From Bacteroidota bacterium (GTDB lineage Bacteria > Bacteroidota > Bacteroidia > UKL13-3), in assembly GCA_051715425.1 (NCBI GenBank), contig JBPXJS010000041.1:336360-400359 (forward strand): DNA of 64,000 bases, written 5' to 3'. The first letter of the stretch is position 1. Each line of letters begins with the position of its first letter. The position numbers and the translations under genes were made by a program. The notes beneath the pieces are model-generated. The model saw only the letters and a list, made by a program, of their open reading frames with translations, did no database searches and was not told the origin of the DNA. This document shows positions 4,847 through 58,372 of this stretch, piece after piece.

Positions 4847-5860
4847 ATGGTAAAAAAATTGTACCTGCTGGGTGGAGGAGATTTTGTGTGGGAATTGCTT
4901 ACTTGGGCCACCAATGAAGGAATTAAAACAACTGCCATTACAAACCAAGCCCAGGCCCAAAAACAAATTAGCGCAACAGGTTTGTCCTTTCAGGATAGCC
5001 TGAACCAGCAACATATTCCTGCAGTGTTTACAGATCATGCTGAAGAAATAAAACGGGATGATTCTTATACTGCAGAAGAGTGTCTTTACATTTCATACGG
5101 AGCTCCCTGGATTTTAACCAAAGACATACTGACAAATACTTTCCATGGACGCCTTCTGAATATACACGGAACCAGATTACCTAAAGACCGGGGAGGAAAC
5201 ATTTTTACCTGGCAGATTCTATCAGGTTTAAGAACAGGAATGTGCCTTATACATCAAATGACTGAGCAAATCGATCAGGGTCCGGTTATTGCTTGGGACG
5301 AATTCATTTATCCGGCATCCTGCAGAATCCCGGCCGACTACATTTCATACTACGAAAGCAGGAATTTATCATTCCTTAAAGAATTTATTAAGAAGGAAGA
5401 GTTCTCTCTGGCTCCTACATTTGCTCAACCGGAATATCTGTCTACCTACTGGCCCAGGGTACTGGCAAATGTGCACGGATGGATAAACTGGGAACTGGAA
5501 GCAACGGATACAGAAAAATTTATTTGCGCATTTGATAAGCCATATGGTGGAGCCAGGTGCCGCTGGAATAACCAGGTGGTGATTATAAGGGATACCTACA
5601 GTCAAACCTCAGATGGGAAAACGCATCCGTTTCAACATGGACTCGTTTACAGAAATAATGGGAAATGGCTAAATGTATGCACAAAAGGGGGTGAACTCCT
5701 TATTTGTGATATAAGGGACGAGAAAGGGAATGATTTGCTTTCAAAAATAAAACCTGGAGACAGGCTTTATACACTTCCAGAAGATATAATCTCAACCTTC
5801 CAGCGTGTGGTAAAACAAAAAGATGGGCTTGTTACAAAAAAAATTGATCATCACCGATGA
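4847..5860 (+). CDS. Formyltransferase-domain protein (Fmt/ArnA-N-like, long form with a C-terminal extension). Putative sugar N-formyltransferase.
   Basis: LLNIHGTRLPKDRGGNIFTWQILSG and IHQMTEQIDQGPVIAWDE match the HxSLLPxxRG / DxG core of formyl transferases. Start set at MVKKLYLLGGG (the track ORF starts at 4817). Confidence 0.6.
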   Translation: MVKKLYLLGGGDFVWELLTWATNEGIKTTAITNQAQAQKQISATGLSFQDSLNQQHIPAVFTDHAEEIKRDDSYTAEECLYISYGAPWILTKDILTNTFHGRLLNIHGTRLPKDRGGNIFTWQILSGLRTGMCLIHQMTEQIDQGPVIAWDEFIYPASCRIPADYISYYESRNLSFLKEFIKKEEFSLAPTFAQPEYLSTYWPRVLANVHGWINWELEATDTEKFICAFDKPYGGARCRWNNQVVIIRDTYSQTSDGKTHPFQHGLVYRNNGKWLNVCTKGGELLICDIRDEKGNDLLSKIKPGDRLYTLPEDIISTFQRVVKQKDGLVTKKIDHHR

Positions 5861-6786
5861 AACTATTGGCCGTTAATTTTCATTATTACCGCAACGATGT
5901 ATATCATTCAGGAATTTATCCGGTAAGTCATGCCGCATTTGCACACCAAATAGAGGTACTTTCAAAGCATTATACTTTTGTTAGCCAATCTGAAATTAAC
6001 TTATGGATTGCCAACGATCATTATCCGGAAGGGAATTATTGTGTAATTACTTTTGATGATGGGTTAAAGGAGCAAATGAATGCCTTTTCCTGGTTGAAAC
6101 AAAATGGCATTCCTGCTATATTTTATGTGGTAACCCAACCTCTGCTTGAAGAAAAAGTGTTGCCGGTAAATAAGCTTCATTACATACGAACCCGCCTCAC
6201 CGATTCTGAACTGATTTCACTTATTGAAAATGAATATCCTGAAAAAGTAAAACATATTGATACCCATGCCGCAGAACAACAATACAGGTACGATAATGAA
6301 GAAGGCAGAAAAATCAAGTACTTGTTGAACTTCGGATTGGAAGAACATGAAAAAACGCTTATTCTGAATCAGTGTTTTCAGAATCTGGTTGATGATGAGG
6401 GAACTTTTGCCAGACAATTATACATGAACAAAGAAGACCTTATTGAATTGGCTAAAGAAGACATGCTCGGAGCACATGGTCACCAACATTTGCCCCTTGC
6501 ACAGGTAAAATACGAAACTGCTCACCATGATATCTTAACTTCCATAACCCTTATAGAAAACATGACCAATTTACCTGTTACGTCTTTCGCATACCCATAT
6601 GGAAGCAAAGTGGCAGTTAATGAATCTTTGCTCTCTATTTTTTCCGAGACAAATGTAAAATTTGCATTTACGATGTGGAGAGGTATGAATATATCCACAT
6701 CAGAAATTAATCCGATGCTGCTAAAAAGAATTGACACGAATGATGCACCTGGAGGTAAAGACAACTCTGACGAGTTTTTACCTTAA
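5857..6786 (+). CDS. Polysaccharide deacetylase (NodB homology domain, CE4 family).
   Basis: VITFDDGLKEQ NodB motif 1. AHGHQH and FAYPYGS motifs follow downstream. Confidence 0.65.
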   Translation: MKLLAVNFHYYRNDVYHSGIYPVSHAAFAHQIEVLSKHYTFVSQSEINLWIANDHYPEGNYCVITFDDGLKEQMNAFSWLKQNGIPAIFYVVTQPLLEEKVLPVNKLHYIRTRLTDSELISLIENEYPEKVKHIDTHAAEQQYRYDNEEGRKIKYLLNFGLEEHEKTLILNQCFQNLVDDEGTFARQLYMNKEDLIELAKEDMLGAHGHQHLPLAQVKYETAHHDILTSITLIENMTNLPVTSFAYPYGSKVAVNESLLSIFSETNVKFAFTMWRGMNISTSEINPMLLKRIDTNDAPGGKDNSDEFLP

Positions 6787-6792
6787 TCAACC

Positions 6793-7728
6793 ATGAGAAT
6801 ACTTATTGCCGAGACAAAGGACTTTAGTCGCGAAACTGTTATACTGCTGAATAAAACATTCGAAGTGGATGTGAGGGATATTGAGTCTGAAGAGGTTCCT
6901 TTAGTACTTGATCAATATGATGTATTCTGGTTCAGGTTAAAATATAAACTTACCTCAGATATTATCCTTAACAGCAATAAATGTAAGTATATCATTTGTC
7001 CGGTTACCGGGCTTGACCATATAGATATCGAGGCCTGCAAAATAAAAGGAATCAACATTATCAGCCTTAAGGGAGAAACCGCATTTCTCCGGGAGGTGCG
7101 TGCTACTGCTGAGCATACCATTGGGTTAACACTTTCTCTGCTCAGGCAAATTCCGGCCGCTGTACGTTCCGTTCAAAATGGAATCTGGAACAGGGATTTG
7201 TTTAAAGGAAATGAGATTTATGGTAAAAAGGTAGGAATACTTGGTGTTGGCAGATTGGGCAAAATCACCGCATCGTACTTTAAGTGTTTTGGTGCAGAGG
7301 TCTACGGTTATGATATCAGCCCTGTTGATGCATCAACCTGTACCCCGGTTTCTTCGATGGATGAGTTATTTGCAAGTACAGACATTATAAGCATTCATGT
7401 GAATCTGAATGACGCTACTCACCATTTGGTGACGAAAAAACAACTGGCATTAATGAAGCCAGGTAGCTTTCTTATTAATACATCAAGGGGAAGTATTATT
7501 AAAAGTGAAGATCTGATCTGGGCACTGGAAGAGCAAAAACTGGCAGGTGCAGCCATTGATGTTATTGAAAACGAATTTAACCATAAAACCGATCTCCTTA
7601 CTCAATATGCCGCAGCGAACAAAAATCTGATCATCACCCCCCATATTGGTGGTAATACCTGGGAATCATTCGCGAAAACGGAGTTGTTTGTTGCAAACAA
7701 ACTACTTAAGCTTACAGATAACAATTAA
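6793..7728 (+). CDS. NAD-dependent D-isomer-specific 2-hydroxyacid dehydrogenase (glycerate / phosphoglycerate dehydrogenase-like).
   Basis: GILGVGRLGKITA Rossmann motif. NTSRGSIIKSEDLIWALEEQKLAGAAIDV and IITPHIGGNT are catalytic-domain motifs. Confidence 0.8.
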   Translation: MRILIAETKDFSRETVILLNKTFEVDVRDIESEEVPLVLDQYDVFWFRLKYKLTSDIILNSNKCKYIICPVTGLDHIDIEACKIKGINIISLKGETAFLREVRATAEHTIGLTLSLLRQIPAAVRSVQNGIWNRDLFKGNEIYGKKVGILGVGRLGKITASYFKCFGAEVYGYDISPVDASTCTPVSSMDELFASTDIISIHVNLNDATHHLVTKKQLALMKPGSFLINTSRGSIIKSEDLIWALEEQKLAGAAIDVIENEFNHKTDLLTQYAAANKNLIITPHIGGNTWESFAKTELFVANKLLKLTDNN

Positions 7729-7735
7729 TCCAATA

Positions 7736-8758
7736 ATGAAACTAGCGTTAATAGGACTTGGCCCTCATGGACTCCGTTTATTGGAGGCAGCAAAGAGAAT
7801 AAGTCAAATTACAACTGTTGCCGTCATTGACAGAGATGAGCAAAAATTAAACCTGCCTCAGGTAGCGGAAATTCCTCATAGGTTAAACGACCTCTCCTTG
7901 TTATGGACCAATCAAATTCAACCCGATATCTTGCTTATTGCAACAAATGGTCCGTCACACGCCCCCATTGCACTTGAAGCAATGGATCATGGGGTTAGCT
8001 ACTTGCTCATATCAAAACCTCTTGCCTGCACCACTGAAGACTGTATAAACCTGCTGGAGAAGTCTAAACAAAAAAATATTCGTATTGCTGTAGATCATGC
8101 CATAAGATATGATGATACATATAACTGGATTAAAAGTCAAATATCATCAGGTTCCTGGGGTGACATAAAAAGTATATATATACAGCGCCCTGGCATAGGA
8201 TTAGGTTGTCTTGGCGTTCACTCTATTGACATTGCCAATTTCTTAATGGAAGAACTTCCAGAAACGGTTACGGGATGGATAGATAAACCATACAATATTA
8301 ACCCCCGCGGTGCTGAATTTATAGACCCGGGAGGATTGGTAGTGCTAAACTACAGCAAAGAAAAACGCGCTGTTATTTCTCAAATTGAAACAGGATCAGG
8401 CCCTATGAGCGTGGAAATAATCTGTAATTATGCCAGAATTAAAGTTGACGAAAAATTTGGTCAACTTGAAGTTGTTTCCAGAGATAAAAATTATAAAGCC
8501 GGGCCTGGGAATCCGGTTCCATATATGAAAGAAATAAACCCGCATAACCAACCCGTTAAACATGATCTTATTCTTTTGATGGAAACTACAATACGGGATT
8601 TGTTAGAATCAGAAAATCCAAAAGCTGATACAGAAGCAGGACTAAACGCTGTTGCTATTCTTGCAGCAAGCTATCTTTCCCATCAGAATGGCAATACCCC
8701 TTACCCTTTTCCGCTTCATAAAGGCGAAGATCTTAAACTATTTTTACCCATTACCTGA
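7736..8758 (+). CDS. Gfo/Idh/MocA-family NAD(P) oxidoreductase.
   Basis: MKLALIGLGPHG N-terminal Rossmann. Start moved to an internal ATG just after the upstream stop (the track ORF starts at 7646). Confidence 0.65.
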   Translation: MKLALIGLGPHGLRLLEAAKRISQITTVAVIDRDEQKLNLPQVAEIPHRLNDLSLLWTNQIQPDILLIATNGPSHAPIALEAMDHGVSYLLISKPLACTTEDCINLLEKSKQKNIRIAVDHAIRYDDTYNWIKSQISSGSWGDIKSIYIQRPGIGLGCLGVHSIDIANFLMEELPETVTGWIDKPYNINPRGAEFIDPGGLVVLNYSKEKRAVISQIETGSGPMSVEIICNYARIKVDEKFGQLEVVSRDKNYKAGPGNPVPYMKEINPHNQPVKHDLILLMETTIRDLLESENPKADTEAGLNAVAILAASYLSHQNGNTPYPFPLHKGEDLKLFLPIT

Positions 8759-8760
8759 GA

Positions 8761-9723
8761 GTGAGACTGGCCCTTATTGGTTATGGAAATATTGCAAAAA
8801 AGCACATCGAGGTCTTTAAACACTTCGGGGTAAATATTATTGCCTCCTGCAACCGAAGCGAGGCTGGAAATGTTGCAGCTAAAGAGGAAGCGGGCATCAG
8901 GAAAACGTATACAAACTACATAGAAATGGCTGAAAAAGAAGCACCAGATGCCATTTTGGTTTGTGTAACTTTTGATAAAATATATGAGGTTACGAAAGCC
9001 CTGATACCTCTAAAAATTCCATTACTTATTGAAAAACCGGCCGGAACAAGTGTTGCAGAACTATTGGATCTGATAGCGCTCAAAAACAAGTATGAAACAA
9101 TCGTTCAGGTAGCCCTCAACAGACGACACTACTCCATATTTAATACCGCAATTAATGATATGGGAGGAATCCAGAATTTAACTTCTATGTCCATTGAATG
9201 GTCAGAAAATCCGATAAGAGCCATTGAAAAAAAGAATTATACTGAGTCAATGGCTGCTAAATTAATCTATGCGAATTCTATACACGGTTTGGACACTTTG
9301 CTCCATTTTCCAGGCGTTCCTGTAGAAGAACAAATAATAACAAAAAACTTTGATGGGAAATTTCGTTGTCAGATGCAATTGTCAGGATTAACCGGATCTG
9401 GAAAATTAATTCATTTTAACTCCTCATGGGACAATCCTGTTCCCTGGAGAATCGTAATGACATCAGCCGGTATCCGATATGTATTTGCACCGCTTGAAAC
9501 ATGTGTAAAATTGGACAGTAATGGGACAGAGACTATTTTAGAAGCCGACTCATTTGACAAACAATTTAAAGCAGGGTTTTATACCCAGGCCAAACATTTT
9601 ATGCAAATTATTTCTGAAAAACGGGTTCATCATGAACATGACCTTGATTCTTGCATTTCGGGAATGGTTATAGCAGAAAAATTCTATAAAAAACTTTTTC
9701 AAGACAAGTCTACCCAATTATAA
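8761..9723 (+). CDS. Gfo/Idh/MocA-family NAD(P) oxidoreductase (second copy).
   Basis: MRLALIGYGNIAKKHIEVF Rossmann. The LLIEKP motif is typical of this family. Confidence 0.7.
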   Translation: MRLALIGYGNIAKKHIEVFKHFGVNIIASCNRSEAGNVAAKEEAGIRKTYTNYIEMAEKEAPDAILVCVTFDKIYEVTKALIPLKIPLLIEKPAGTSVAELLDLIALKNKYETIVQVALNRRHYSIFNTAINDMGGIQNLTSMSIEWSENPIRAIEKKNYTESMAAKLIYANSIHGLDTLLHFPGVPVEEQIITKNFDGKFRCQMQLSGLTGSGKLIHFNSSWDNPVPWRIVMTSAGIRYVFAPLETCVKLDSNGTETILEADSFDKQFKAGFYTQAKHFMQIISEKRVHHEHDLDSCISGMVIAEKFYKKLFQDKSTQL

Positions 9724-9732
9724 TATTTAATT

Positions 9733-10428
9733 GTGAATATACTCGCCATTATACCAGCACGCGAAGGTTCCAAAAGAGTACCTAAAAAAAATTTCCGCCC
9801 TTTTGCAGAAAGTACCCTTACAGATATCGCTATTAAACAAGCCTTACAAAGCAAACTTATAAAAACAATTGCAGTAAGCTCAGATAGTAAGGAAGTGCTT
9901 GGTATAGCAAAGAAATATGAGCGAATAATTCCGATGGAGCGTCCGGTTGAATTATCAGATGATCATTCTCCCGCTATTGATTATGTGAGGCATACCTTAG
10001 CGGTACTGGAACAAAACCAGCAATTTGATATGGTTGTGATTCTGCAACCCAGTTCTCCGCTGCGAACAGCCGCTGATATTGATGCTACTATAGATATGCT
10101 GCTAAACCACAAGCATGCTGACTCAGCAGTTAGTGTAGTAAAGGTAAGCCACATGGTGCATCCGGTGAAATTAAAAACGATAAAAGACAATGAGCTCCTT
10201 CCTTTTATTGAAGATGAAAAAGGGCGATTTGCTTCCCAGGATTTACCTGATATTTATGTAAGGAACTGCGCTGTTTATGCAACCTGGCGAAAAGACCTTG
10301 AGACAAGACCTGATGTGATAGGAAAAAAAAGTATTGCCTACGTGATGCCTCCTGAAACATCGGTTGATATAAATGATATGATAGATTTTGAGTTTGCAGA
10401 ATACCTGTATAAAAAACAAATTTCTTGA
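9733..10428 (+). CDS. CMP-nonulosonic acid synthetase (acylneuraminate cytidylyltransferase family; NeuA/LegF/PseF-like).
   Basis: ILAIIPAREGSKRVPKKN and ILQPSSPLR motifs of CTP_transf_3. 231 aa. Confidence 0.8.
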   Translation: MNILAIIPAREGSKRVPKKNFRPFAESTLTDIAIKQALQSKLIKTIAVSSDSKEVLGIAKKYERIIPMERPVELSDDHSPAIDYVRHTLAVLEQNQQFDMVVILQPSSPLRTAADIDATIDMLLNHKHADSAVSVVKVSHMVHPVKLKTIKDNELLPFIEDEKGRFASQDLPDIYVRNCAVYATWRKDLETRPDVIGKKSIAYVMPPETSVDINDMIDFEFAEYLYKKQIS

Positions 10429-11870
10429 GCGTTTTAAAATCTTTAGGTAAGGATACTTTTAACTACGGTATTGGTAAAATAATGCCTCAGGTTATTGGAT
10501 TCCTTCTAATACCCGTTTATACCAGATTTCTTAATCCGTCTGATTATGGGATAGTTGAGATGACTGGTGTATTCAGTGCATTTGTAATGATATTTATGCG
10601 AATGGCACTACCCGGTTCAATTACCAGATTCTACTATAATTACAAAGAAGGTAAAGACCTCAAGGATTATGTTACATCCGTATTTTGGTTAATGAAAATA
10701 CTTGGCCTCACAGTAGCAGTTATCACCGGTATTATTGTCTATTTTTTTGCCGGCACACTTATACCGGGATTGCCATTCTGGCCATTTGTACTTATTGCTT
10801 TGGCAACTGCCTTTTTAACAACCAACTCAGAAATTCAGAAAAGACTACTGCAGGCCAGAAGGCAATCTGCCTATTCTGCCAAACTAAATATTGCTACTGC
10901 CGCATTGGGAATATTACTGGTATTGTTATTTGTTCCGGTATTAAAAATGGGAGCCCTCGGTTTTATTTTAGCAGGTTTGATTGCGGCAATTGTATTTTTT
11001 ATTCAGGCTCATTATTATCTCCGTTTCGATTTGCAGGGTTCATTTAAGCCTGCATTGTTAAAGCATTCCGTTAAATATGCCATTCATATTCTTCCTTCTC
11101 ATCTGATTACGCCTTTTTGTGCATTATTCTCCCGCTCACTTCTTTCTTCCGGTTACTCGCTGGAAGCCGTTGGTGTTTTTGCTATTGCCAACCGCTTTAT
11201 GAGTCCTCTCAATATTGTTTCAGGAGCCTTTAGCAATTCATATGTACCGGTTTATTTTGAAACCAGAGAAAGTAATAGTGAAGAAAATTTGCAGAAACTA
11301 ATTGCTGCAACCCAACGAATATGGGTTCTGGCTAACATGATGTTTCTGGCTATGGCAGTTGCCGGTCCTTTATTTATTGTATTGTTAACACCCGATAAAT
11401 ACCACAGCGGTGCCAACCTTATTCCTGTCTTAAGTTTAACCTTTCTTATCGGGGTTTTCTATGATATGTATACACAGGAACTTTATTACAGCAAACAAAC
11501 TCAGTGGGTTAGTATTATTGCCGTTATGCGATTCATTGCCAATATCAGTGTATTGTTGTTAACGGTAAATTCTTTGGGCATTTTTGCTATTCCGGTGAGC
11601 TTACTTGCAGAATCAATAGTTATCACTACAACTGCTTACTTTATATCAAGAAAACAATTCAGGCTAAAAAAAGATAATTCCTTCCTTACCGTGATAACTG
11701 CTGCCAGCATATCACTCGCATCCATACAAACAATTATGCTTTATTACTCCTTTCCCCTGCATATTCTCATACTGAGCGGGATTGTATTAATCATCATGTT
11801 TCTCGGATTTCTGCATTATAAAAAGTATTTTAACTTTAATACCCTACTAACCCGAATAAGAAAATCATAA
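10425..11870 (+). CDS. wzx: Wzx-type oligosaccharide flippase (polysaccharide biosynthesis protein, MOP superfamily).
   Basis: 481 aa with about 12-14 predicted TM helices. The N-terminus NYGIGKIMPQVIGFLLIPVYTRFL is typical of Wzx. Confidence 0.8.
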   Translation: MSVLKSLGKDTFNYGIGKIMPQVIGFLLIPVYTRFLNPSDYGIVEMTGVFSAFVMIFMRMALPGSITRFYYNYKEGKDLKDYVTSVFWLMKILGLTVAVITGIIVYFFAGTLIPGLPFWPFVLIALATAFLTTNSEIQKRLLQARRQSAYSAKLNIATAALGILLVLLFVPVLKMGALGFILAGLIAAIVFFIQAHYYLRFDLQGSFKPALLKHSVKYAIHILPSHLITPFCALFSRSLLSSGYSLEAVGVFAIANRFMSPLNIVSGAFSNSYVPVYFETRESNSEENLQKLIAATQRIWVLANMMFLAMAVAGPLFIVLLTPDKYHSGANLIPVLSLTFLIGVFYDMYTQELYYSKQTQWVSIIAVMRFIANISVLLLTVNSLGIFAIPVSLLAESIVITTTAYFISRKQFRLKKDNSFLTVITAASISLASIQTIMLYYSFPLHILILSGIVLIIMFLGFLHYKKYFNFNTLLTRIRKS

Positions 11871-11874
11871 CCAT

Positions 11875-12885
11875 ATGTTATCAAATAAGTCAATTTTAAT
11901 AACCGGAGGAACAGGTTCTTTAGGTAAAGAACTTACCAAAACAATTCTAAGCAAATGGCCCGATGTGAAAAAGCTTATCATTTACTCAAGAGATGAGCAA
12001 AAGCAATTCCAGATGGAACAGGAATTTCCGGTAAGCAAATACCCTGCAGTACGTTATTTCATAGGCGATGTAAGAGATCTTGAAAGACTTAAACGCGCCT
12101 TAACCGGTGTGGATTACGTTATACATGCTGCGGCAATGAAACACGTACATATTGCCGAGTATAATCCGGATGAATGTGTGAAAACGAATGTAGGAGGGGC
12201 GGAAAATTTGATAAAGGCCGCGCTTGAAACTAATGTTAAAAAGGTAGTGGCGTTATCTACGGATAAGGCATGTGCTCCAATTAACCTTTATGGTGCCACT
12301 AAACTAACTTCAGACAAACTTTTTATAGCAGCCAATAATATCAAAGGATTCAAGGATATCAAATTCTCTGTTGTTCGTTACGGCAACGTCATGGGTTCAA
12401 ACGGCTCTGTTATTCCCTTTTTTATTAACAAGAAAAAAGAAGGTGTGTTGCCAATTACAGATCCCAATATGACCCGTTTTAATATCTCCCTTGCAGGTGG
12501 TGTTGATATGGTGCTGCATGCTTTAGAACATGCATGGGGTGGAGAATTATATGTACCTAAAATTCCTTCCTATAAAATAATGGACGTGGCAGAAGCGATA
12601 GGCCCGGAATGTGAACACAGGGTTTCAGGTATAAGACCCGGAGAGAAAATCCATGAAGAAATGATAACAAGTTCTGATTCATTCACCACTTATGATTTGG
12701 GTAAGTACTATGTTATTCTTCCACAGGAGCCTATCTGGGATTTGCAGGAATTTATTAAACAGTTTAATGCCAAACATGTGCCCGAAGGATTTAATTACAC
12801 ATCGGGTGAAAACACAGAGTGGGAAACTGTTGAAAGCCTCCGAAAATTAATTAAAGAACACGTTGATCCAACTTTTGTTGTATAA
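11875..12885 (+). CDS. pseB: UDP-N-acetylglucosamine 4,6-dehydratase (inverting), PseB / FlaA1-like.
   Basis: ILITGGTGSLGKEL Rossmann. STDKACAPINLYGATKL is the catalytic Y-x3-K region. 336 aa. Lies upstream of the PseC-like gene. Confidence 0.85.
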   Translation: MLSNKSILITGGTGSLGKELTKTILSKWPDVKKLIIYSRDEQKQFQMEQEFPVSKYPAVRYFIGDVRDLERLKRALTGVDYVIHAAAMKHVHIAEYNPDECVKTNVGGAENLIKAALETNVKKVVALSTDKACAPINLYGATKLTSDKLFIAANNIKGFKDIKFSVVRYGNVMGSNGSVIPFFINKKKEGVLPITDPNMTRFNISLAGGVDMVLHALEHAWGGELYVPKIPSYKIMDVAEAIGPECEHRVSGIRPGEKIHEEMITSSDSFTTYDLGKYYVILPQEPIWDLQEFIKQFNAKHVPEGFNYTSGENTEWETVESLRKLIKEHVDPTFVV

Positions 12886-12889
12886 AATA

Positions 12890-14044
12890 ATGAAACCAAT
12901 ACCATACGGAAAACAATACATTAACGAAGACGATCTGAAGGCAGTTACTGAAACGCTTCAATCTGATTTTCTTACCCAGGGACCTGCAATTGCTGAGTTT
13001 GAAAGTGCCTTTGCAACTTACACCGGTGCAAAATATGCTGTTGCATTAAGTAATGGAACGGCAGCTCTTCACCTATGTGCAATGGCATTGGATGTAAATG
13101 AAAAGAGTAATGTAATTACAACCCCAATTACATTTGCTGCATCAGCTAACTGCGTGAGGTACTGCGGTGGCAACGTTTTTTTCGCAGATATTAATCCCAA
13201 TACCTACACCCTTGATATTACAAAAGTCGAAGAACTGATTCTATCAAAACCTAAAGGATTCTTTCAAGGGATAATCCCGGTTGACTTTGCCGGATATGCT
13301 GTGAACCTGGAAGCATTCAGAAATCTGGCTGATAAACACGGCTTATGGATTATTGAAGATGCATGCCACGCCCCAGGAGGGTATTTTACAGATTCATCAG
13401 GTACCGAACAATTCTGCGGAAACGGAACTTATGCCGATATGGCTATTTTCTCCTTTCACCCGGTTAAACATATTGCATGTGGCGAAGGAGGAATGATTAC
13501 TACCAACAACGAAGACCTTTACAAAAAGCTTCTGTTACTGAGAACACATGGCATAACAAAAGATCCCAACCTGTTACACGAAAATCATGGCGCATGGTAT
13601 TATGAAATGCAAACTCTGGGGTATAACTACAGATTAACTGATTTTCAAGCCGCTTTGGGAACTTCACAATTAAAACGGGCGGATCAGGGTCTATTGCGAA
13701 GAAGAGAAATCGCTCAAACATATTTTGATGCTTTTAAAGATTGTGATTTCATAAAAGGACAATCAGGTGCGGTTGAGGGGCATGCCTATCACCTGTATAT
13801 CATTGAAACAGATAGACGAAAAGAATTGTATGATTTCCTGAGAAGCAAGAATATTTTTTGTCAGGTTCATTATATCCCGGTGCACACGCTGCCATACTAC
13901 ACTGAACTTGGACATAAAAAAGGTGATTATTATAATGCCGAACACTATTATAGCCAGTGTTTAAGTTTACCTATGTTTCCAACATTAAGTCATGAAGAAC
14001 AGACATATGTGATTCATCAGATAAAAGACTTTTTCAGTAACTAA
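12890..14044 (+). CDS. pseC: DegT/DnrJ/EryC1-family PLP aminotransferase, PseC-like (UDP-4-amino-4,6-dideoxy-L-AltNAc transaminase).
   Basis: YGKQYINEDDLKAV and FSFHPVKHIACGEGGMITT (PLP lysine region). Start set at MKPIPYG just after the pseB stop (the track ORF starts at 12863). Confidence 0.8.
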   Translation: MKPIPYGKQYINEDDLKAVTETLQSDFLTQGPAIAEFESAFATYTGAKYAVALSNGTAALHLCAMALDVNEKSNVITTPITFAASANCVRYCGGNVFFADINPNTYTLDITKVEELILSKPKGFFQGIIPVDFAGYAVNLEAFRNLADKHGLWIIEDACHAPGGYFTDSSGTEQFCGNGTYADMAIFSFHPVKHIACGEGGMITTNNEDLYKKLLLLRTHGITKDPNLLHENHGAWYYEMQTLGYNYRLTDFQAALGTSQLKRADQGLLRRREIAQTYFDAFKDCDFIKGQSGAVEGHAYHLYIIETDRRKELYDFLRSKNIFCQVHYIPVHTLPYYTELGHKKGDYYNAEHYYSQCLSLPMFPTLSHEEQTYVIHQIKDFFSN

Positions 14045-14951: not shown

Positions 14952-14953
14952 CT

Positions 14954-18017: not shown

Positions 18018-18035
18018 CTACTAAATATAATTATC

Positions 18036-19238: not shown

Positions 19239-19241
19239 AAT

Positions 19242-19859: not shown

Positions 19860-19861
19860 TC

Positions 19862-23318: not shown

Positions 23319-23324
23319 GTAATT

Positions 23325-29436: not shown

Positions 29437-29437
29437 T

Positions 29438-36524: not shown

Positions 36525-36741
36525 AGTAAAGGAAATAATGGCTGCTGTTTTCGAAACAGAGCCATCATTAATTAATGAAAACAGCAGTCCCGATAATATC
36601 GAGAACTGGGATTCTATCAGACATATGAATCTGATTGTTGCCCTTGAGGAGGAATTCGGAATCCAGTTTAATGATGACCAGATTGCCGACATGACCAACT
36701 TTAAGCTGGTAATTGCTACCCTAAAAGAATTTAGTTTATAG
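36514..36741 (+). CDS. Acyl carrier protein (phosphopantetheine attachment site).
   Basis: 75 aa, acidic. WDSIRHMNLIVALEEEFGIQF has the Ser (DSI) attachment motif and helix II. Confidence 0.75.
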   Translation: MENKVKEIMAAVFETEPSLINENSSPDNIENWDSIRHMNLIVALEEEFGIQFNDDQIADMTNFKLVIATLKEFSL

Positions 36742-49037: not shown

Positions 49038-49825
49038 CCATCTATACTTCACTTCAAACTGACTGGCTGGCATTGCACCAGATCAACTCCATTAAAAAAG
49101 AGTTTGAAAACGTAACAGTAGTTGCAGTGAACCGCTCTGAAAAAGAGTTTCTACAGGAACGGATTCAGACACAAAAAAAATTAATAAAAAAAAGGGGACT
49201 CATTTGGTTCATTAAGAAAAGAGTCGATAATTATTTTCTGCGCCCATGCTCTTCTGATTGGAACAGGCATCTTGAGGAACAAAAACAGATACAAAAAGCA
49301 CTACTTAAGACAGAGGAAATACCTTATGACCACATTGTTTCATCTGTTAATGGGAAAAACAGCGCACAAACAATATTGGATACAGAACCTGACCTCTTAA
49401 TTCAGGCAGGCGCAGGAATACTGAAATCTAATATTTTTAATATACCAGCCATTTGCACGCTAAATGTGCATGGTGCTATAGCTCCCCGTTTAAGAGGAGG
49501 AAGCTCCATTTTCTGGTCTTACTATTTTGGACGACCAGACTGGCTTGGGGTAACAGTGCATCAAATTGATAAAGGAATTGATACCGGTGCGGTTTATAAA
49601 AGGCAGACATTATCTTATACACCAGGAATTCACCCGGCTGGTAAGTTGGTAGAATCTGCTATTACCGGAACAGATTTGTTATGTTCTGTAATTGGTCAAA
49701 TTCAGAAAAGAGATATTATTGCACAAAAAATAGAAGAAGAAAGTACATACCTTGGGTTTTACAACTCAAAACAATACAATAGCTTAAAAAACAATAACTG
49801 GTACCCGATTAAAACAACTAAATAA
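49028..49825 (+). CDS. Formyltransferase-domain protein (short form).
   Basis: NVHGAIAPRLRGGSSIFWS and VTVHQIDKGIDTGAVY. Confidence 0.65.
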   Translation: MRITIYTSLQTDWLALHQINSIKKEFENVTVVAVNRSEKEFLQERIQTQKKLIKKRGLIWFIKKRVDNYFLRPCSSDWNRHLEEQKQIQKALLKTEEIPYDHIVSSVNGKNSAQTILDTEPDLLIQAGAGILKSNIFNIPAICTLNVHGAIAPRLRGGSSIFWSYYFGRPDWLGVTVHQIDKGIDTGAVYKRQTLSYTPGIHPAGKLVESAITGTDLLCSVIGQIQKRDIIAQKIEEESTYLGFYNSKQYNSLKNNNWYPIKTTK

Positions 49826-51636
49826 TGTCAATCATCTTAGGAATTAACTTTAGTCACGACTGTTCCGTATCCCTGCTGAAAAACGGAAAAGTTCTGGCAT
49901 CCATTGAGGAAGAAAAAACTAGTCGTATCAAACAGGATTTCGGCTGGCCCAAAACAGCAGTAGAAAGATTGCTTAAAGAGCATCATATTAAACCAGAAGA
50001 GGTAAACACCATTGCGTTTGGCAGTAAGTTCTTTTTAAGCATCAGCAAGAACGAAGTAAAATACCGTTTTAATAAAACGCAGTTAAACAGAAATGGCGAA
50101 ATATTAAACCGCATTACTTCTTTTCTGGGTTTTACCGATTCAAATTTTACTGATAAAAATACAGACACATTTGAAGAGGAGTTGAAAAAAGAAGGATTTA
50201 TTCATGCGAAAGTTCAATTTTTTAACCATCACCTTGCTCATGCTGCAAGTGCGTGGTATGCCGCTCCATTTGAGTGCGATCTCGTATTTACTGCAGATGG
50301 TCATGGCGATGGGGAATCAATCACATTTTATGAACCTGATTCCGTAGAAGGATTAAAACTGCTGCAATCATTTGGTCACGAAGTTTCTGTAGGTCAATTC
50401 TACAGCGGAATTACCAAACTGCTTGGTTTCAGACCCACAAGGCATGAAGGAAAGATTACAGGATTAGCCGCTTATGGTAAGCCCGGTGAATTACTGGAAA
50501 AGTTCAGGGGAGCATTTCATTTCGAAAATGGAATACTCACCCGGTTTCCTTTTAATGAATCTGAAACATTGTGGAAACAATATAATCTTGATAGTAACCT
50601 TGATCTGAAAACGAAAGTTAACTTTCAGTCTGAATCAGCTGTTGGTCAGCAATACGCTAAAAATGCATGGATACTTGATGCATGGCTGAAAGAAGTAACA
50701 GCAGGATACAGCAAAGAAGATATAGCATATGCCTGTCAGAAAGTAACAGAAGAAGTAATGGTGCAATTGATGGATTATGCCATTCACAAATTTAAAGGTG
50801 GCAAAAAAATCAAACTTGGTCTTGCAGGCGGGGTATTTGCTAATGTAAGGGTCAATCAGCTCCTGTTCGAACACCCTTTGGTAGAAAATGTTTTTGTTCA
50901 ACCCGCAATGGGAGATTCGGGTTTATCTATTGGGGCTGTTTATCTGGCCGATATTGAGGATCATAAAAATAAGCTTACAAACCAATATCGTTTTACTCAT
51001 ACTTATCTTGGACCAGACTATACCAATGATCTGGAAACCTTTTTAAACAACATTGATAAAGATAAATACATTGTAGAAGATATGGGAAATGAAGCACCTA
51101 AAAGGGTTGCCAAATTAATGCAGGATAATACCATAGTAGGCTTTTGGCACGGCAGTATGGAATGGGGCCCCCGTGCCCTTGGAAAACGTTCTATGATCCT
51201 CAATACGTTTGTTAGAAGCGTGAACGACACCCTCAATCAACGATTAAACCGTACTGAATTTATGCCATTTGCTCCTTCAGTTATTGATTATATGGTAAAA
51301 ACATATATGCCTAAATATGAGGAAAAGGATATTGCTGCCGATTACATGACAATAACCTACGATGTTGATCCTAAATATCACGACCAGTTGCAGGCCGTGG
51401 TTCATGTAGACGGAACAGCCCGACCACAAGTGGTAAAAAAAGAAACCAATCCCTATTATTATGCTATAATAGATGAGTTTTATAAACTGACCGGATGCGG
51501 GGCGATTGTAAATACAAGTTTCAATGTTCATGAAGAGCCCATTGTATCATCTCCTGAATCAGCCTTCAGGGCTCTTGTTGATCATCGGATTGATGCGCTT
51601 GTTCTTGACCAATTTCTCATCGTACATAAAAAATGA
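49825..51636 (+). CDS. NodU/CmcH-family carbamoyltransferase (Kae1/HypF-like fold), O-carbamoyltransferase.
   Basis: 603 aa. MSIILGINFSHDCSVSLL N-terminus. NHHLAHAASAWY (H-x-H-x-H metal site). C-terminal GCGAIVNTSFNVHEEPIV is the NodU carbamoyl-AMP domain. Confidence 0.8.
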   Translation: MSIILGINFSHDCSVSLLKNGKVLASIEEEKTSRIKQDFGWPKTAVERLLKEHHIKPEEVNTIAFGSKFFLSISKNEVKYRFNKTQLNRNGEILNRITSFLGFTDSNFTDKNTDTFEEELKKEGFIHAKVQFFNHHLAHAASAWYAAPFECDLVFTADGHGDGESITFYEPDSVEGLKLLQSFGHEVSVGQFYSGITKLLGFRPTRHEGKITGLAAYGKPGELLEKFRGAFHFENGILTRFPFNESETLWKQYNLDSNLDLKTKVNFQSESAVGQQYAKNAWILDAWLKEVTAGYSKEDIAYACQKVTEEVMVQLMDYAIHKFKGGKKIKLGLAGGVFANVRVNQLLFEHPLVENVFVQPAMGDSGLSIGAVYLADIEDHKNKLTNQYRFTHTYLGPDYTNDLETFLNNIDKDKYIVEDMGNEAPKRVAKLMQDNTIVGFWHGSMEWGPRALGKRSMILNTFVRSVNDTLNQRLNRTEFMPFAPSVIDYMVKTYMPKYEEKDIAADYMTITYDVDPKYHDQLQAVVHVDGTARPQVVKKETNPYYYAIIDEFYKLTGCGAIVNTSFNVHEEPIVSSPESAFRALVDHRIDALVLDQFLIVHKK

Positions 51637-52661: not shown

Positions 52662-52670
52662 CCTTTTATA

Positions 52671-53834: not shown

Positions 53835-53903
53835 TACAATTTAAAGGAACATCTCTCTAAATCATCACAATATCCGTAAGAAATCATTTGGATTTCTATA
53901 TTT

Positions 53904-55022: not shown

Positions 55023-55024
55023 CA

Positions 55025-56425
55025 ATGGCCTTAACAGATATTATATATAAATACCTTCCTGTTAGTCTTCAGAATTATGCCATTTCCCTGTATGGCTACA
55101 AGTGGCAGAAAAGACGTTTTGGAGGTATATTCGAAAAGGAACTGACAGGCTTTAAAACGCGGGAAAAATACACCCCTGAGCAATGGGAAGCGTATCAGAA
55201 TACAGAACTCAGAAAAATATTGACCCACGCTTTTTCCCATGTACCATTTTACAGGAAAAAATTCACCGATTCGGGCTTTACCCTGCATGACCTTGTAAAC
55301 TTTACCTTATCAGACTTAAGTCATTTGCCCTATCTGGAGAAAGATGAGTTAAGAACATTTGGAACCACAGATCTGATTGCATCAACAAAGGAACCCGGAG
55401 GAGACTTTTTTGCCAGCAGCGGAAGTACCGGAACGCCCACACAAATTCTTATTTCTCCACGGATGCATCAGGCATGGAGCGCGGGATTTGAAGCACGCAT
55501 CAGGCACTGGGCAGGAGTAAACAGGAAAACCCCTCGCGGAACTATTGGTGGCAGAAGAATTATAAAAGACGGAGACGCAAAAGGGCCATTCTACAGATAT
55601 AATCTGGTTGAAAAGCAGGTCTATTTTTCAGCATACCATATTTCCCCAAAAACAGTAGCCAACTATGTAGACGGTATGTTTAAACATCGGATCGAATACA
55701 TGACAGGTTATGCCATGAGCAACTATTTTCTTGCACGTTTTATTGAAGAGGCAGGAATCAAAGCTCCACAACTCAAGGCCGTTATTACCTCGAGTGAAAA
55801 ATTAACTCCCGAAATGAGGGAAACTTTCCGAAGGGTGTATGGCTGCCCTACCTTTGACTCCTATAGCGGTGTTGAAGACTGCGGCATGATAACCGAATGT
55901 GAATCCGGAAGTTTGCATATAAGTCCGGATCTGGGAATAATAGAAATTCTAAATGAACAGGGAAAACCTGTAAATCCTGGTGAAGAAGGTGAAGCAGTTT
56001 GCACAGGTACACTTAATTATGACCAACCTTTAATACGCTACAGAATAGGTGATATGCTTCGGCTAAGCAAGAATCAGAATTGCCCATGTGGCAGGCAAAT
56101 GCCGGTAATTGATGAAATAATAGGTAGAATTGAAGATACCGTGGTGGGTAAGGATGGGCGCGAGATGGTGCGGTTTCATGGCATATTTATCAACATTCCT
56201 GAGATTATTGAAGCTCAGTTGATTCAACATACATTAGAGATGTTTGAAATAAAATTGGTAACATCGCAGCAGCTTAACCCGGATCAATTAAGCCTTATCC
56301 AAAGCCGCATGGAAAGCCAGCTGGGTAAGATTAACCTTGAAATTAATGAAGTAGAGAGCATACCCAGAAACCAAAACGGAAAATTTAAAGCCGTTATCTC
56401 TAAAGTAAAAAGAAATACCATATGA
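55025..56425 (+). CDS. Phenylacetate-CoA ligase / CapK-family adenylate-forming enzyme.
   Basis: FASSGSTGTPTQ (adenylation P-loop-like core) and YLEKDELR. 466 aa. Confidence 0.7.
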   Translation: MALTDIIYKYLPVSLQNYAISLYGYKWQKRRFGGIFEKELTGFKTREKYTPEQWEAYQNTELRKILTHAFSHVPFYRKKFTDSGFTLHDLVNFTLSDLSHLPYLEKDELRTFGTTDLIASTKEPGGDFFASSGSTGTPTQILISPRMHQAWSAGFEARIRHWAGVNRKTPRGTIGGRRIIKDGDAKGPFYRYNLVEKQVYFSAYHISPKTVANYVDGMFKHRIEYMTGYAMSNYFLARFIEEAGIKAPQLKAVITSSEKLTPEMRETFRRVYGCPTFDSYSGVEDCGMITECESGSLHISPDLGIIEILNEQGKPVNPGEEGEAVCTGTLNYDQPLIRYRIGDMLRLSKNQNCPCGRQMPVIDEIIGRIEDTVVGKDGREMVRFHGIFINIPEIIEAQLIQHTLEMFEIKLVTSQQLNPDQLSLIQSRMESQLGKINLEINEVESIPRNQNGKFKAVISKVKRNTI

Positions 56426-57630
56426 ATACACTCAAACTAATAAAGAATCACACAGGAAAACTTGTTCCCCTTGCGCTTAGCACATTAAATCCGGCTAATT
56501 TTACGGTGCTTGTAAAAAATGCCTTTAGTCTATTATCAAGCCAGCAATGGGAAAACTACATTCTCAAAAACAACAAAAAACACACAGAACTGGCAAAGAA
56601 GTCACTCAACTGGCTAAAACATTCTCAGGATGTTATTGGATCAGGAGGCGTGGGCTGTTATGAATTTTACAGGTGGACCAAAGGTTATCCTGAAGTAACC
56701 GGATACATTATACCAACCTTTTGGGATGCATACCATTTATTTGGTGACGAAGAATATAAACAAAGAGCCATTAGAATGGCTGATTGGGAATTGGGTTTAC
56801 AAAAACCGGAAGGCGGATGGGAAGGCTTTTATGAAGGTGACGGCCAACCTCCCGTAGTTTTTAATTCCGGTCAGGTGCTGAGGGGACTTATCAGAACATA
56901 CAAAGAAACCAACGAACAAAAATACCTTGATGCGGCCATTAAAGGAGCTGATTGGATAGTTGGAACTCAGGATGCAGACGGTAGCTGGACCAGCACCAAC
57001 TTTAAACAAATGAAACGGGTGTACGATACTTACGTTACTGCACCCATTGCAGAATTGTATCAGATTACCAAAAACGAAAAGTATAAAGAAAGCTGCATCA
57101 GAAACTGCGATTTTGTATTGAAACACCAACATGCCAATGGCTGGTTTGAGCTTTGTGATAATACGTTGCTGAACAATGAAGCTCCTGTTACCCATACCTT
57201 ATCGTATACCACAGATGGATTAATTGAAACCGGACAACGGCTAGGAATTGATAAATATATTCAGGCCGGTAAACTTGCAGCAGAAGCTATGATGCATAAA
57301 GCTGAAATTTTACCGGTAATGCCAGCACGACTTGATAAGGACTGGAAAAAAAGAGCCAATTATGTTTGTAATACAGGTAACGCACAATTAGGTATTATCC
57401 TCATGAGACTGTATGAAATAACAGGAGAAGCCCGCTACATGAACACTGCTCTAAAACTGGCCGATTTCCTTGCCTATATCCAGCAACTGAATAGTGTGGG
57501 AGCACACCGCACCGGAGGAATAACAGGATCTTATCCGATATGGGGAATGTATTGCCCGCTGAAATACCCATCGTGGGCAAGTAAATATTATACCGATCTT
57601 TTATTCTATATCCATAAGCATGCTAAATAA
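56422..57630 (+). CDS. Alpha/alpha-toroid repeat protein with terpenoid-cyclase / prenyltransferase-like QW repeats. Function unknown.
   Basis: Repeats LQKPEGGWEG, TQDADGSWTS and HQHANGWFEL spaced about 45-55 aa apart. Confidence 0.4.
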   Translation: MNTLKLIKNHTGKLVPLALSTLNPANFTVLVKNAFSLLSSQQWENYILKNNKKHTELAKKSLNWLKHSQDVIGSGGVGCYEFYRWTKGYPEVTGYIIPTFWDAYHLFGDEEYKQRAIRMADWELGLQKPEGGWEGFYEGDGQPPVVFNSGQVLRGLIRTYKETNEQKYLDAAIKGADWIVGTQDADGSWTSTNFKQMKRVYDTYVTAPIAELYQITKNEKYKESCIRNCDFVLKHQHANGWFELCDNTLLNNEAPVTHTLSYTTDGLIETGQRLGIDKYIQAGKLAAEAMMHKAEILPVMPARLDKDWKKRANYVCNTGNAQLGIILMRLYEITGEARYMNTALKLADFLAYIQQLNSVGAHRTGGITGSYPIWGMYCPLKYPSWASKYYTDLLFYIHKHAK

Positions 57631-58372
57631 AGACACGCTTTCAGAGCAAATCGCATTTATCTCCATTAATCCTTCGGGTAAATTTGTAAAATCGGCTCAG
57701 CTGGGATTTGACAAGGTTGGTTTGCGGCCTAAGTTTATGATTTATGTAAACCCCGGAGGGAGGATAAAAAAAGAATTTAAAAAATATCGCCTTGGCATAT
57801 TCACTCAGTTTTTACTTCCAAAATTCAAACAACACTTTGGCAATAAACAAAGCTTTTCCAACGAGGTCATAAACATTCCCATTCCGGTTATCCATAAAGT
57901 AAGTTCATTAAACAGTGACGAAACAGTAAAGTTTATTACCGACAACAAGATTAAATACCTGGTGAATTGTGGTGCCGGAATTTTCAGAAAAAAAATCACT
58001 TCCATTCAAGGCATTCAAATCATTAATGCCCATGCCGGGAAACTTCCTCACTACAGAAATATGAATGTGGTGGAATGGGCACTGCTGAATGGAGAACCTG
58101 TTATCGGAACCATTCATCTGATTGATAGCGGAATTGATACCGGACCAATTCTTTATGAAGAAGAATTAAAGATTAGTGGTGCTGATCACCTGATACCTGC
58201 AAGGGAAATGGCTTTTGATCAGGTCATACAACTGGCAGGTAAAACCGTGCTTGCACTTGCCGAAGAAACATTAAACATCAAACCACAGCCTAAAGAGGGT
58301 AAAAAATGGTATACCATGCATCCCTTCTTTAAGGAAAAACTGAACAGAAAACTGGCCTCTGCGGGCAGGTAA
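57620..58372 (+). CDS. Formyltransferase-domain protein (short form).
   Basis: INAHAGKLPHYRNMNVVEWALLNG and IHLIDSGIDTGPILYEE. Confidence 0.65.
   Translation: MLNKDTLSEQIAFISINPSGKFVKSAQLGFDKVGLRPKFMIYVNPGGRIKKEFKKYRLGIFTQFLLPKFKQHFGNKQSFSNEVINIPIPVIHKVSSLNSDETVKFITDNKIKYLVNCGAGIFRKKITSIQGIQIINAHAGKLPHYRNMNVVEWALLNGEPVIGTIHLIDSGIDTGPILYEEELKISGADHLIPAREMAFDQVIQLAGKTVLALAEETLNIKPQPKEGKKWYTMHPFFKEKLNRKLASAGR

Follow-up and report, generated by a model that had tools for sequence, protein, structure and literature searches.

Why should a single bacterial glycan locus encode five proteins with the fold of methionyl-tRNA formyltransferase (Fmt)? The question is raised by a stretch of 64,000 nucleotides, here called the window, from a Bacteroidota bacterium of the lineage UKL13-3 (GenBank assembly GCA_051715425.1, contig JBPXJS010000041.1, positions 336,360 to 400,359), in which a preliminary description had pointed out five formyltransferase-like genes. 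All five were confirmed within one glycan locus at 4847-5860 (FT1), 21662-22291 (FT2), 25645-26676 (FT3), 49028-49825 (FT4) and 57620-58372 (FT5), where FT stands for a protein of the formyltransferase fold; they lie on the (+) strand, as do all other features of the window given below. Based on their fold, catalytic residues, phylogeny and gene neighborhoods, the probable explanation is that the locus accreted five separately conserved sugar-tailoring modules, each bringing its own FT-fold protein. FT1, FT4 and FT5 would formylate, FT2 would carry out a step like that of PseJ in the pseudaminic acid (Pse) pathway, and FT3 would be rewired.

The five proteins, of 209 to 347 amino acids and all with intact open reading frames (ORFs), differ in domain content. 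FT1 is a two-domain, Fmt/ArnA-like protein recognized by both Pfam models (Formyl_trans_N, 35.8 bits; Formyl_trans_C, 27.9 bits). FT4 and FT5 are single-domain proteins (Formyl_trans_N, 44.1 and 40.0 bits, respectively), and FT2 is a compact protein of 209 amino acids that barely exceeds the Formyl_trans_N gathering score (27.3 against 26.1 bits). FT3 is matched in Pfam by Formyl_trans_C alone (52.2 bits), and its Fmt/ArnA fold was recognized by structural modeling. The start of FT1 was placed by the gene caller at the ATG at 4817 (giving 347 amino acids), and the N-termini of the homologues favor the ATG at 4847; for FT3, the longest ORF begins at the TTG at 25594, and both the homologues and the gene call fit the ATG at 25645. 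Hidden Markov models built from four family alignments and one cross-family alignment found no sixth member in the six-frame ORFs of the window and its flanks.

All five proteins score far below every NCBIfam equivalog cutoff for Fmt, ArnA, VioF-type enzymes, PurN and PurU. The Fmt equivalog (TIGR00460, cutoff 201.5) gives 28-47 bits, and the ArnA equivalog (NF005998, cutoff 777) gives 30-54 bits, the fused UDP-GlcA decarboxylase domain of ArnA being absent in all five. The VioF-type model (NF005755, dTDP-4-amino-4,6-dideoxyglucose formyltransferase, cutoff 238) gives at most 28.8 bits, for FT5. Existing annotation of these families reads only "formyltransferase family protein", "methionyl-tRNA formyltransferase" or "hypothetical protein". 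PurU, the formyl-tetrahydrofolate hydrolase, was considered and rejected as an identity: only FT1 and FT5 match, at 17-18 bits against cutoffs of 286 and 223 (subfamily model), and these matches are confined to the shared formyltransferase core (profile positions of about 149-241 of 280-286), the N-terminal part of the models being unmatched. The suggestion that some copies became such hydrolases is thus unsupported.

The catalytic residues were compared in an alignment of the five proteins with Escherichia coli Fmt and ArnA, taking N108, H110 and D146 of Fmt as the reference. The Asn-x-His...Asp set is complete in FT1 (Asn105-His107-Asp143, invariant in 16 family members), in FT4 (Asn146-His148-Asp185, invariant in the family alignment) and, in this alignment, in FT5. 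In FT2 it reads Val67-His69-Asp105 throughout the family, with an invariant Asn65 two residues upstream of the Val (N-L-V-V-H); the closest structure to FT2, 1ZGH, likewise lacks the canonical Asn. FT3 has Asp110-x-Met112 and Asp153, each at least 90% conserved in its family, together with a new, near-invariant His124 in the motif RGGAH and a five-residue insertion preceding D153. The motif by which the copies had been recognized, HxxxLPxxRG followed by D-x-G, is therefore literal in FT1 only (HGTRLPKDRG, DQG). It is approximate in FT2 (HESDLPKGKG, DAG), FT4 (HGAIAPRLRG, DTG) and FT5 (HAGKLPHYRN, DTG), and it has neither the His nor the Gly in FT3 (MIIRMPKYRG, DHA). Loss of the catalytic His or Asp in several copies was not found, because FT3 is the only copy without the His and none is without the Asp. 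The residues thus mark FT3, and FT2 to a lesser degree, as non-canonical. The proposal that some copies were repurposed suits FT3, where Asn and His are replaced by Asp and Met family-wide, and possibly FT2 (Asn to Val).

The five genes are not recent duplicates. They are at best 23-31% identical to one another. In pairwise BLASTP comparisons the highest full-length identity is 29%, between FT1 and FT3 (E 4e-40); FT4 and FT5 are 27% identical, and the remaining pairs align only across about 50 residues of the catalytic core. Nucleotide similarity among the five genes was not detected. In a neighbor-joining tree that combined the five copies with relatives, E. coli Fmt and the N-terminal part of ArnA (72 sequences in all; 100 bootstraps, capped distance correction), each copy clusters with orthologues from other phyla. 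The FT2, FT3, FT4 and FT5 families were recovered in 100, 98, 90 and 100 of the 100 replicates, respectively, the grouping of FT1 with FT3 in 100 and that of FT4 with FT5 in 91. FT1-type sequences were monophyletic in just 17 replicates and are otherwise paraphyletic around a nested FT3 family, so FT3 derives from a canonical FT1-like ancestor. There are consequently three anciently separated lineages, FT1/FT3, FT2 and FT4/FT5; of the two histories between which a tree was to decide, ancient paralogy and recent duplication, the former holds, and near-identical copies are absent.

Each copy has its own conserved partner. Four of them stand beside a putative amidohydrolase (two of NodB type, one PIG-L and one M28-like), and FT5 is differently partnered. 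FT and partner genes overlap by 1-11 bases in the window, which is consistent with co-translation. Such constant partnerships argue for modules of N-acyl editing, or for transient formylation of the ArnA/ArnD kind, rather than for simple one-step formylation. Among the relatives, two FT genes occur together in three loci (L008, L011 and L014 in our numbering) and lie about 40 kb apart on a 550-kb contig of a metagenome-assembled genome (MAG), where one is FT1-like and the other FT5-like; five is the maximum seen.

FT2 lies within a Pse pathway. Upstream are the genes for PseB and PseC (11875-14044; 506 bits, cutoff 408, and 467 bits, cutoff 423) and for the UDP-sugar hydrolase PseG (20655-21668; 164 bits, cutoff 154), which overlaps the FT2 start by 7 bases. 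Downstream, at 22320-25093, are a GNAT of the Acetyltransf_9 family, PseI (481 bits, cutoff 340) and a PIG-L deacetylase with an AHPDDE motif. The best PDB match of FT2 is 1ZGH (50 bits), followed by ArnA, and more than 2,300 homologues of 208-215 amino acids and about 60% identity are spread across Bacteroidota. The clusters of two Bernardetia (Cytophagales) genomes and of Gracilimonas (Balneolales) run PseB-PseC-PseF-PseG-FT2-PseI; next comes either a GNAT or a second FT2-like protein, and PIG-L stands behind it. The position of FT2 between PseG and PseI is therefore shared by the window and three genomes of two other orders, and the PIG-L proteins of the latter are 70% identical to that of the window. 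The second FT2-like family (226-233 amino acids, Formyl_trans_C_2, 29-30% identical to FT2) is found directly before PIG-L in Gracilimonas (L008:9675-10355) and in a PVC-group bacterium (L011:14818-15519), in whose locus the FT2-like gene, PIG-L and PseI stand together. In Gracilimonas this FT2-like protein replaces the Acetyltransf_9 GNAT of the window and Bernardetia. No PseH-type GNAT was found in the Bernardetia and Gracilimonas clusters and, in Gracilimonas, no GNAT at all, so that there an FT-type protein must supply the N-acylation normally required by PseG and PseI. As a side observation, a Capsule_synth gene lies downstream of the Pse cassette in Gracilimonas, as it does in the window.

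FT2 probably N-formylates UDP-4-amino-4,6-dideoxy-beta-L-AltNAc and would then be a functional analogue of PseJ, which makes Pse5Ac7Fo (PMC11040635). PIG-L would remove the acetyl group from the 2-N position, the later N5 of Pse, and the GNAT or a second FT would re-acylate this position. The scheme is chemically plausible because PseI and PseF accept 7-N-formyl and 5-N-hydroxybutyryl substrates (PMC13576459; PMC11040635) and because sugars of the Pse5Hb7Fo type exist (PMC11040635). It is plausible also because a MaoC-SDR fusion, an FkbH domain protein and a carrier protein encoded further downstream could supply hydroxyacyl or glyceroyl donors. A 7-N-formyl-Pse-type product, which the preliminary description had offered as an example, is thus in keeping with a Pse pathway that has an FT in its N-acyl slot.

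FT1 is embedded in a second cassette. A NeuB-like synthase (#1; 291 bits, below cutoff) and a NeuC-type hydrolysing 2-epimerase (390 bits, cutoff 236) occupy 1916-4088, and a protein of 248 amino acids (u248, 4090-4836) directly precedes FT1. The start of a NodB-type (Polysacc_deac_1) de-N-acylase, PDa1 (5857-6786; motifs TFDDG, HGHQH and AYPYG), overlaps the FT1 stop by 4 bases. A PGDH-like 2-hydroxyacid dehydrogenase, two GFO/IDH oxidoreductases and CMP-sugar synthetase #1 follow at 6793-10428, as recognized from Pfam, NCBIfam and synteny. The order NeuB-NeuC-u248-FT1-NodB-2-hydroxyacid dehydrogenase-CMP synthetase, with or without the two GFO/IDH genes, recurs in two other MAGs (L060 and L061) at 45-80% identity per gene. 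The counterparts of u248 (L060:8256-8999 and L061:8257-9000) are 52-55% and those of PDa1 45-50% identical; the u248-FT1 pairing is accordingly known from three loci. No Pfam model matches u248 even at E<=1, and a profile of the three u248 sequences gives one weak match of 29.6 bits (E 4e-6) to the PDB entries 9wqw/9wqy, annotated as aminoacyl-tRNA-dependent peptide synthase, by which u248 is a candidate Fem-like transferase. FT1 itself matches PseJ weakly in the PDB, the matches of FT1, FT4 and FT5 to PseJ ranging from E 1e-5 to 7e-4.

FT3 is flanked by a GNAT of RimJ/L type (25104-25631; Acetyltransf_3, 40 bits with the PseH model, below its cutoff of 93), which co-travels with it, and by a DUF4910/DUF2172 M28-like protein (26676-27962), which overlaps FT3 by 1 base and matches PDB 3k9t at E 2e-44. 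The N-domain of FT3 was matched neither by Pfam nor by sequence search of the PDB, so fold prediction was needed. The AlphaFold model, made from 17 sequences (pLDDT 87.8, pTM 0.85), superposes across both domains on Fmt, the N-terminal part of ArnA and the FDH hydrolase domain (Foldseek, best E 1.5e-19, TM 0.70), the best matches being Fmt proteins. Members of the family, 42-72% identical, occur in Bacteroidota, Nitrospirota, Margulisbacteria, Campylobacterales and DPANN archaea. In Candidatus Manganitrophus (Nitrospirota; L009, by fliW) and in a Micrarchaeota genome (L010), the DUF4910/DUF2172 gene is again directly downstream of FT3. Their neighborhoods share WbuX/HisH/HisF-like genes, a CTP_transf_3-Aminotran_3 fusion and RimJ/L-type GNATs that are 45% identical to that of the window, whereas a NeuB-type synthase was called beside FT3 in the Manganitrophus locus only. 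From gene neighborhoods, Das et al. (2014) described the DUF4910 family as a modifier of surface sugars, not a peptidase, acting either as an amidase or as a transacylase of an amino acid or peptide. No Fmt-like partner was discussed there, and among the entries listed in the supplement only a few short FT-like neighbors of DUF4910, in few genomes, appear. FT3 may be understood as a descendant of an FT1-type enzyme in which Asn and His became Asp and Met, and it probably no longer performs classical formyl transfer; FT3 and DUF4910 would likely bind a nonulosonic-acid intermediate, or otherwise N-acylate or de-acylate it.

The gene set at 14088-20647 is found near the same family. It comprises an aldo-keto reductase, NeuB-like synthase #2, CTP_transf_3 protein #2, an aminotransferase resembling glutamate-1-semialdehyde aminomutase (533 bits, cutoff 486) and WbuX/HisH/WbuZ, which NCBIfam assigns to acetamidino formation. 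Elsewhere this set stands beside FT3 in Manganitrophus and Micrarchaeota and beside an FT1-like gene in the PVC bacterium. Its core of reductase, CTP_transf_3 protein and aminotransferase recurs (window 14088-18017; L009:402-4724; L010:11927-14002; L011:10067-14097; L060:17694-18999), and in the window the NeuB-like synthase joins it. The CTP_transf_3 and Aminotran_3 genes are separate and adjacent in the window (15931-18017) and fused, as proteins of 680-703 amino acids, in Nitrospirota, Micrarchaeota and another MAG. This cassette might place an extra amino group on a CMP-activated sugar.

FT4 belongs to a rare lineage (5 representative clusters at E<=1e-30). Its best PDB match is Fmt (41 bits), and several characterized sugar N-formyltransferases, as well as PseJ, are matched weakly. 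A second NodB-type de-N-acylase, PDa2 (48222-49037; motifs SLDDG, HTHNH and SYPFG), overlaps its start by 10 bases, and a NodU-like O-carbamoyltransferase (49825-51636; Carbam_trans_N/C, NodU model 113 bits, below cutoff) overlaps FT4 by 1 base and is 86% identical and syntenic in one related locus (L020). Among 16 metagenome loci of at least 5 kb (within L020-L044), 15 have a homologue of PDa2 directly upstream of the FT4 relative, and these relatives are just 30-39% identical to FT4, save in the near-syntenic L020. Behind the NodB-FT4 pair, two of the loci (L027 and L028) carry NeuB1/NeuC homologues and WbuX/Z/HisH.

FT5 is preceded, at 55025-57630, by a CapK/PaaK-like adenylate-forming enzyme and an (α/α)-toroid protein of heparinase/pectate-lyase-like type (56422-57630). 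The toroid protein is directly upstream of the FT5 homologue in all six loci compared (L012-L017) and CapK precedes in five of them, the module spanning Chitinophagaceae, Flavobacteriaceae and a Solirubrobacteraceae MAG. At 56-74% identity across loci the toroid protein, whose relatives are generic and of fold level only, is more conserved than FT5 (44-58%). In the PDB, FT5 matches FdtF, QdtF, WbkC, WbtJ, VioF, PseJ, Rv3404c and WlaRD (E 1e-7 to 2e-3), and by these matches it is the copy closest to characterized sugar N-formyltransferases. With the adenylating enzyme and the toroid protein it would act on another residue, probably a uronic acid. A separate observation concerns the modules of FT1 and FT5: the contigs CALRQL020000001.1 (L012 and L060, labeled "Agrobacterium sp.") and CAZOZL010000002.1 (L014, labeled "Burkholderiales") have MAG labels that appear to clash with their Bacteroidota-like cassettes, which are 50-80% identical per gene. 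Either mis-binning or mislabeling, or horizontal transfer of whole modules, would account for this.

In the modular reading that we favor, FT1, FT4 and FT5 most likely transfer a formyl group from N10-formyl-tetrahydrofolate to a sugar-borne amine. Because FT1 and FT4 are translationally coupled to a NodB-type de-N-acylase, this amine probably arises by removal of an N-acetyl group, so that acetyl would be swapped for formyl; alternatively, in the NodB pairs the formyl group may be added and later removed. Fold, residues, phylogeny and conserved neighborhoods are what the analysis shows, while the donors, the acceptors and this order of reactions are what we infer, and several points weigh against the reading as a whole. 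All five families score far below the curated cutoffs, and their functional assignments come from sequence. PDa1 and PDa2 have no specific likeness to ArnD, so either order, deacetylation and then formylation or formylation and then deformylation, would suit them. FT2 lacks the canonical Asn, and PseJ (6CI2/6CI4) was not among its PDB matches at E<0.01; the PseH step could fall instead to the GNAT that the window and Bernardetia both encode. Finally, the FT3-DUF4910 pairing comes from three loci only, and DUF4910 also occurs without an FT3-type neighbor, for example in Clostridium acetobutylicum (Das et al. 2014).

The other explanations differ in how many of the copies they take to be formyltransferases and in what the formyl group is for. 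That all five are active sugar N-formyltransferases, yielding about five different N-formylated amino sugars, seems very unlikely to us. The fold and the catalytic Asp are indeed present in all five and the His in four, and two DegT aminotransferases, PseC and three NeuB-type synthases should provide the locus with many amino sugars. However, the residues missing from FT3 (His and Asn) and FT2 (Asn) do not suit it, and the pairing of four of the five with putative de-acylases points to groups that are edited or only transiently present, not to five formyl groups in the end product. The earlier proposal of multiple N-formylated amino sugars is partly borne out: several sugars with N-formyl or edited N-acyl groups are likely, but the five copies are not equivalent enzymes of the WbkC/VioF/FdtF type, given three lineages, differing architectures and scores below cutoff. 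The converse idea, that some copies are decaying pseudo-enzymes or formyl-tetrahydrofolate hydrolases with no role in the glycan, could appeal to those same losses in FT3 and FT2 and to the weak PurU matches of FT1 and FT5. It is nevertheless scarcely credible: the PurU scores come from the shared core, and decay is rejected because FT2 (about 60% identity) and FT3 (42-72%) belong to large families with invariant motifs of their own and conserved contexts across phyla, their ORFs being intact.

Transient formylation we consider rather unlikely. Here FT1-PDa1, PDa2-FT4 and possibly FT2 with PIG-L would work as ArnA and ArnD do: a formyl tag would drive an unfavorable amination or license a downstream transferase, the partner hydrolase would then remove it, and the final polymer would have free amines, making a zwitterionic glycan. 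N-formyl sugars are, on the other hand, common end products in O-antigens. The precedent is close, since ArnC takes only the formylated sugar, which the NodB-family ArnD then deformylates (PMC12690121), and the arnA and arnD genes of E. coli are direct neighbors. The FT-NodB adjacency with stop/start overlap seen here, its occurrence in 15 + 2 other loci, and the CMP-nonulosonic acids of Candidatus Kuenenia that have a free amine plus a formyl group all fit as well. Yet BLASTP of ArnD against PDa1 and PDa2 was not significant, leaving likeness at the family level only (both have the metal and catalytic motifs of NodB), and in the window neither FT1 nor FT4 has an aminotransferase gene beside it.

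A further alternative, which we judge quite improbable, links the FT1/FT3 clade to aminoacyl chemistry: u248 would place an amino acid from aminoacyl-tRNA onto the amine freed by PDa1, and FT1 would formylate the alpha-amine of that amino acid, bound either to the tRNA or to the sugar. FT3, between a RimJ/L-type GNAT and an aminopeptidase-like DUF4910 protein, would handle an N-aminoacyl nonulosonic acid in a non-formyl way. The profile match of u248 (E 4e-6), the conserved order u248-FT1-NodB, the Fmt-like model of FT3, to which the two-domain FT1 aligns over its full length, and the co-travel of the glutamate-1-semialdehyde-aminomutase-like transaminase with the clade are in its favor, and Das et al. 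(2014) independently proposed that DUF4910 transfers an amino acid or peptide to an amino sugar. But ArnA has the same two-domain layout and a UDP-sugar as its substrate, so the architecture is not diagnostic. For u248 there is the single weak profile match of 29.6 bits, and a distant relative of FT1 stands in a simple series dehydratase-aminotransferase-FT that lacks a Fem-like gene. A bolder and rather doubtful extension makes the FT1/FT3 clade the core of undescribed machines that edit the N-acyl groups of nonulosonic acids, FT3 being obligately tied to DUF4910, and FT1 with the Fem-like protein and NodB producing an N-(N-formyl-aminoacyl) nonulosonic acid. If true, there would be four distinct pairs of FT-fold protein and amidohydrolase, and bacteria and archaea would vary the N-substituents of their sialic-acid-like sugars by a general, modular rule.

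The remainder of the window, whose gene content was taken from Pfam hits and NCBIfam scans with equivalog cutoffs, agrees with a surface glycan. The window is part of a single locus for a capsule or O-antigen that extends over more than 64 kb, and genes running in one direction take up nearly all of it (GC content about 0.38). The best named homologues of its proteins are from Chitinophagales, Flavisolibacter, Ferruginibacter and Flavipsychrobacter, and they suggest a Chitinophagaceae-like organism. A UpxY/NusG-like antiterminator (687-1193) heads the locus, and the same scans identified Wzx (10425-11870), Wzy (45820-47091) and a PglC-type initiating transferase (62645-63232), in addition to about ten glycosyltransferases. 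Of the three NeuB-type synthases (1916-2938, 14954-15934 and 23325-24383) only the last, the PseI copy, reaches its equivalog cutoff, and both of the CTP_transf_3 CMP-sugar synthetases are below the PseF cutoff. By this gene content, up to three different nonulosonic acids seem to be made by the locus. Two candidate nonulosonic-acid transferases were noticed: a Capsule_synth (KpsC/KpsS-like) protein (30568-32157) and a weak match to the BFO_1060 family of glycosyltransferases (35112-36524; 67 bits, cutoff 200).

Further genes encode an FkbH domain protein, a MaoC-SDR fusion, a DltB-like MBOAT and AsnB, besides the NodU-like carbamoyltransferase. At 27976-30565 and 32162-35109 are the DltB-like MBOAT (154 bits), a neighbor of 338-375 amino acids without annotation, the fusion of a MaoC dehydratase with a FabG-like SDR, and the FkbH protein, the gene of which (33355-35109) scores 280 bits against a cutoff of 147. 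The set suggests machinery for a hydroxyacyl or glyceroyl donor and for O-acylation, with acyl substituents beyond acetyl and formyl. Downstream of the FkbH gene, past the glycosyltransferase-like gene at 35112-36524, lies an ORF of 67 amino acids (36538-36741) with no Pfam match on record and a classic phosphopantetheine motif of carrier proteins (...ENWDSIRHMNLIVALEEEFGIQF...); a hexapeptide acyltransferase is just downstream. From this motif, the ORF is probably an acyl carrier protein, loaded with glyceroyl or another acyl group that is destined for N- or O-acylation.

Nonulosonic acids (Pse, legionaminic acid and relatives) occur on flagella, capsules and S-layers. The substituents on their nitrogens modulate charge, recognition by the immune system and susceptibility to phages, and the enzymes that install substituents other than acetyl are largely unknown (PMC11040635). 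Our literature searches returned no gene-level description of 7-N-formyl-Pse clusters and none of formyltransferases in nonulosonic-acid capsule loci, and a 2026 paper on Clostridium Pse does not mention formyl or peptidase genes. The FT2 family, with its more than 2,300 homologues, is a likely route to 7-N-formyl Pse in Bacteroidota, and the pairing of one FT-fold protein with one amidohydrolase may be a recurring design rule for N-acyl editing. FT3 adds a widespread family of Fmt fold without the catalytic His, paired with the long-orphan DUF4910, and u248 hints that sugar formylation may be connected with aminoacyl-tRNA-dependent transferases.

Compared with known systems, FT2 most resembles PseJ of Anoxybacillus (6CI2/6CI4), a small single-domain FT that replaces PseH in the Pse pathway to give Pse5Ac7Fo (PMC11040635), and it occupies the same slot, between PseG and PseI. 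It differs in lacking a detectable sequence match to PseJ (E<0.01; nearest the uncharacterized 1ZGH), in its family-wide Asn to Val change and in always being accompanied by PIG-L. The ArnA/ArnD system of lipid A Ara4N couples a two-domain FT, a layout seen in FT1 and FT3, to a NodB-family hydrolase, the pairing of FT1-PDa1 and PDa2-FT4. The FTs of the window, however, have no fused decarboxylase and ArnA scores far under the cutoff, the hydrolases are not specifically ArnD-like, and the context is one of nonulosonic acids and capsule rather than lipid A. Fmt, the best structural match of the FT3 model and the best PDB match of FT4, shares its N- plus C-domain architecture with FT1 and FT3, but the five copies score well below its cutoff and lie in a glycan operon, and FT3 is without the catalytic His and Asn. 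WlaRD, FdtF, QdtF, VioF, WbkC, WbtJ and Rv3404c have the N-domain fold and the Asn-His-Asp set in common; FT5 matches nearly all of them and FT4 several, with E-values of only 1e-7 to 1e-3, at superfamily level. Unlike those enzymes, FT4 and FT5 have no adjacent dehydratase/aminotransferase pair, their neighbors being NodB and a carbamoyltransferase (FT4) and CapK and the toroid protein (FT5), which suggests acceptors other than freshly aminated dTDP- or GDP-sugars.

Two further comparisons concern the partners. In the legionaminic-acid-type cluster of Candidatus Kuenenia, a deacetylase/formyltransferase pair has been linked with CMP-nonulosonic acids that bear one N-formyl group and one free amine and are formed as nucleotide sugars (bioRxiv 10.64898/2026.04.20.719630). 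The logic is that of FT2/PIG-L and FT1/NodB, likened here by description and not by sequence; there, one pair is present, whereas the window has four FT-hydrolase pairs and a fifth, otherwise partnered FT. CA_C2195, the DUF4910-DUF2172 protein of PDB 3K9T, is the homologue of the FT3 partner and a predicted modifier of surface sugars, and the Asp-x-Met family of FT3 was not described in that study (Das et al. 2014). In short, formyltransferases in glycan loci are known already and their pairing with deacetylases has just been noticed, whereas the architecture of one FT per module, the rewired FT3 family with DUF4910, and the cassette of Fem-like protein, FT1 and NodB appear to be undescribed.

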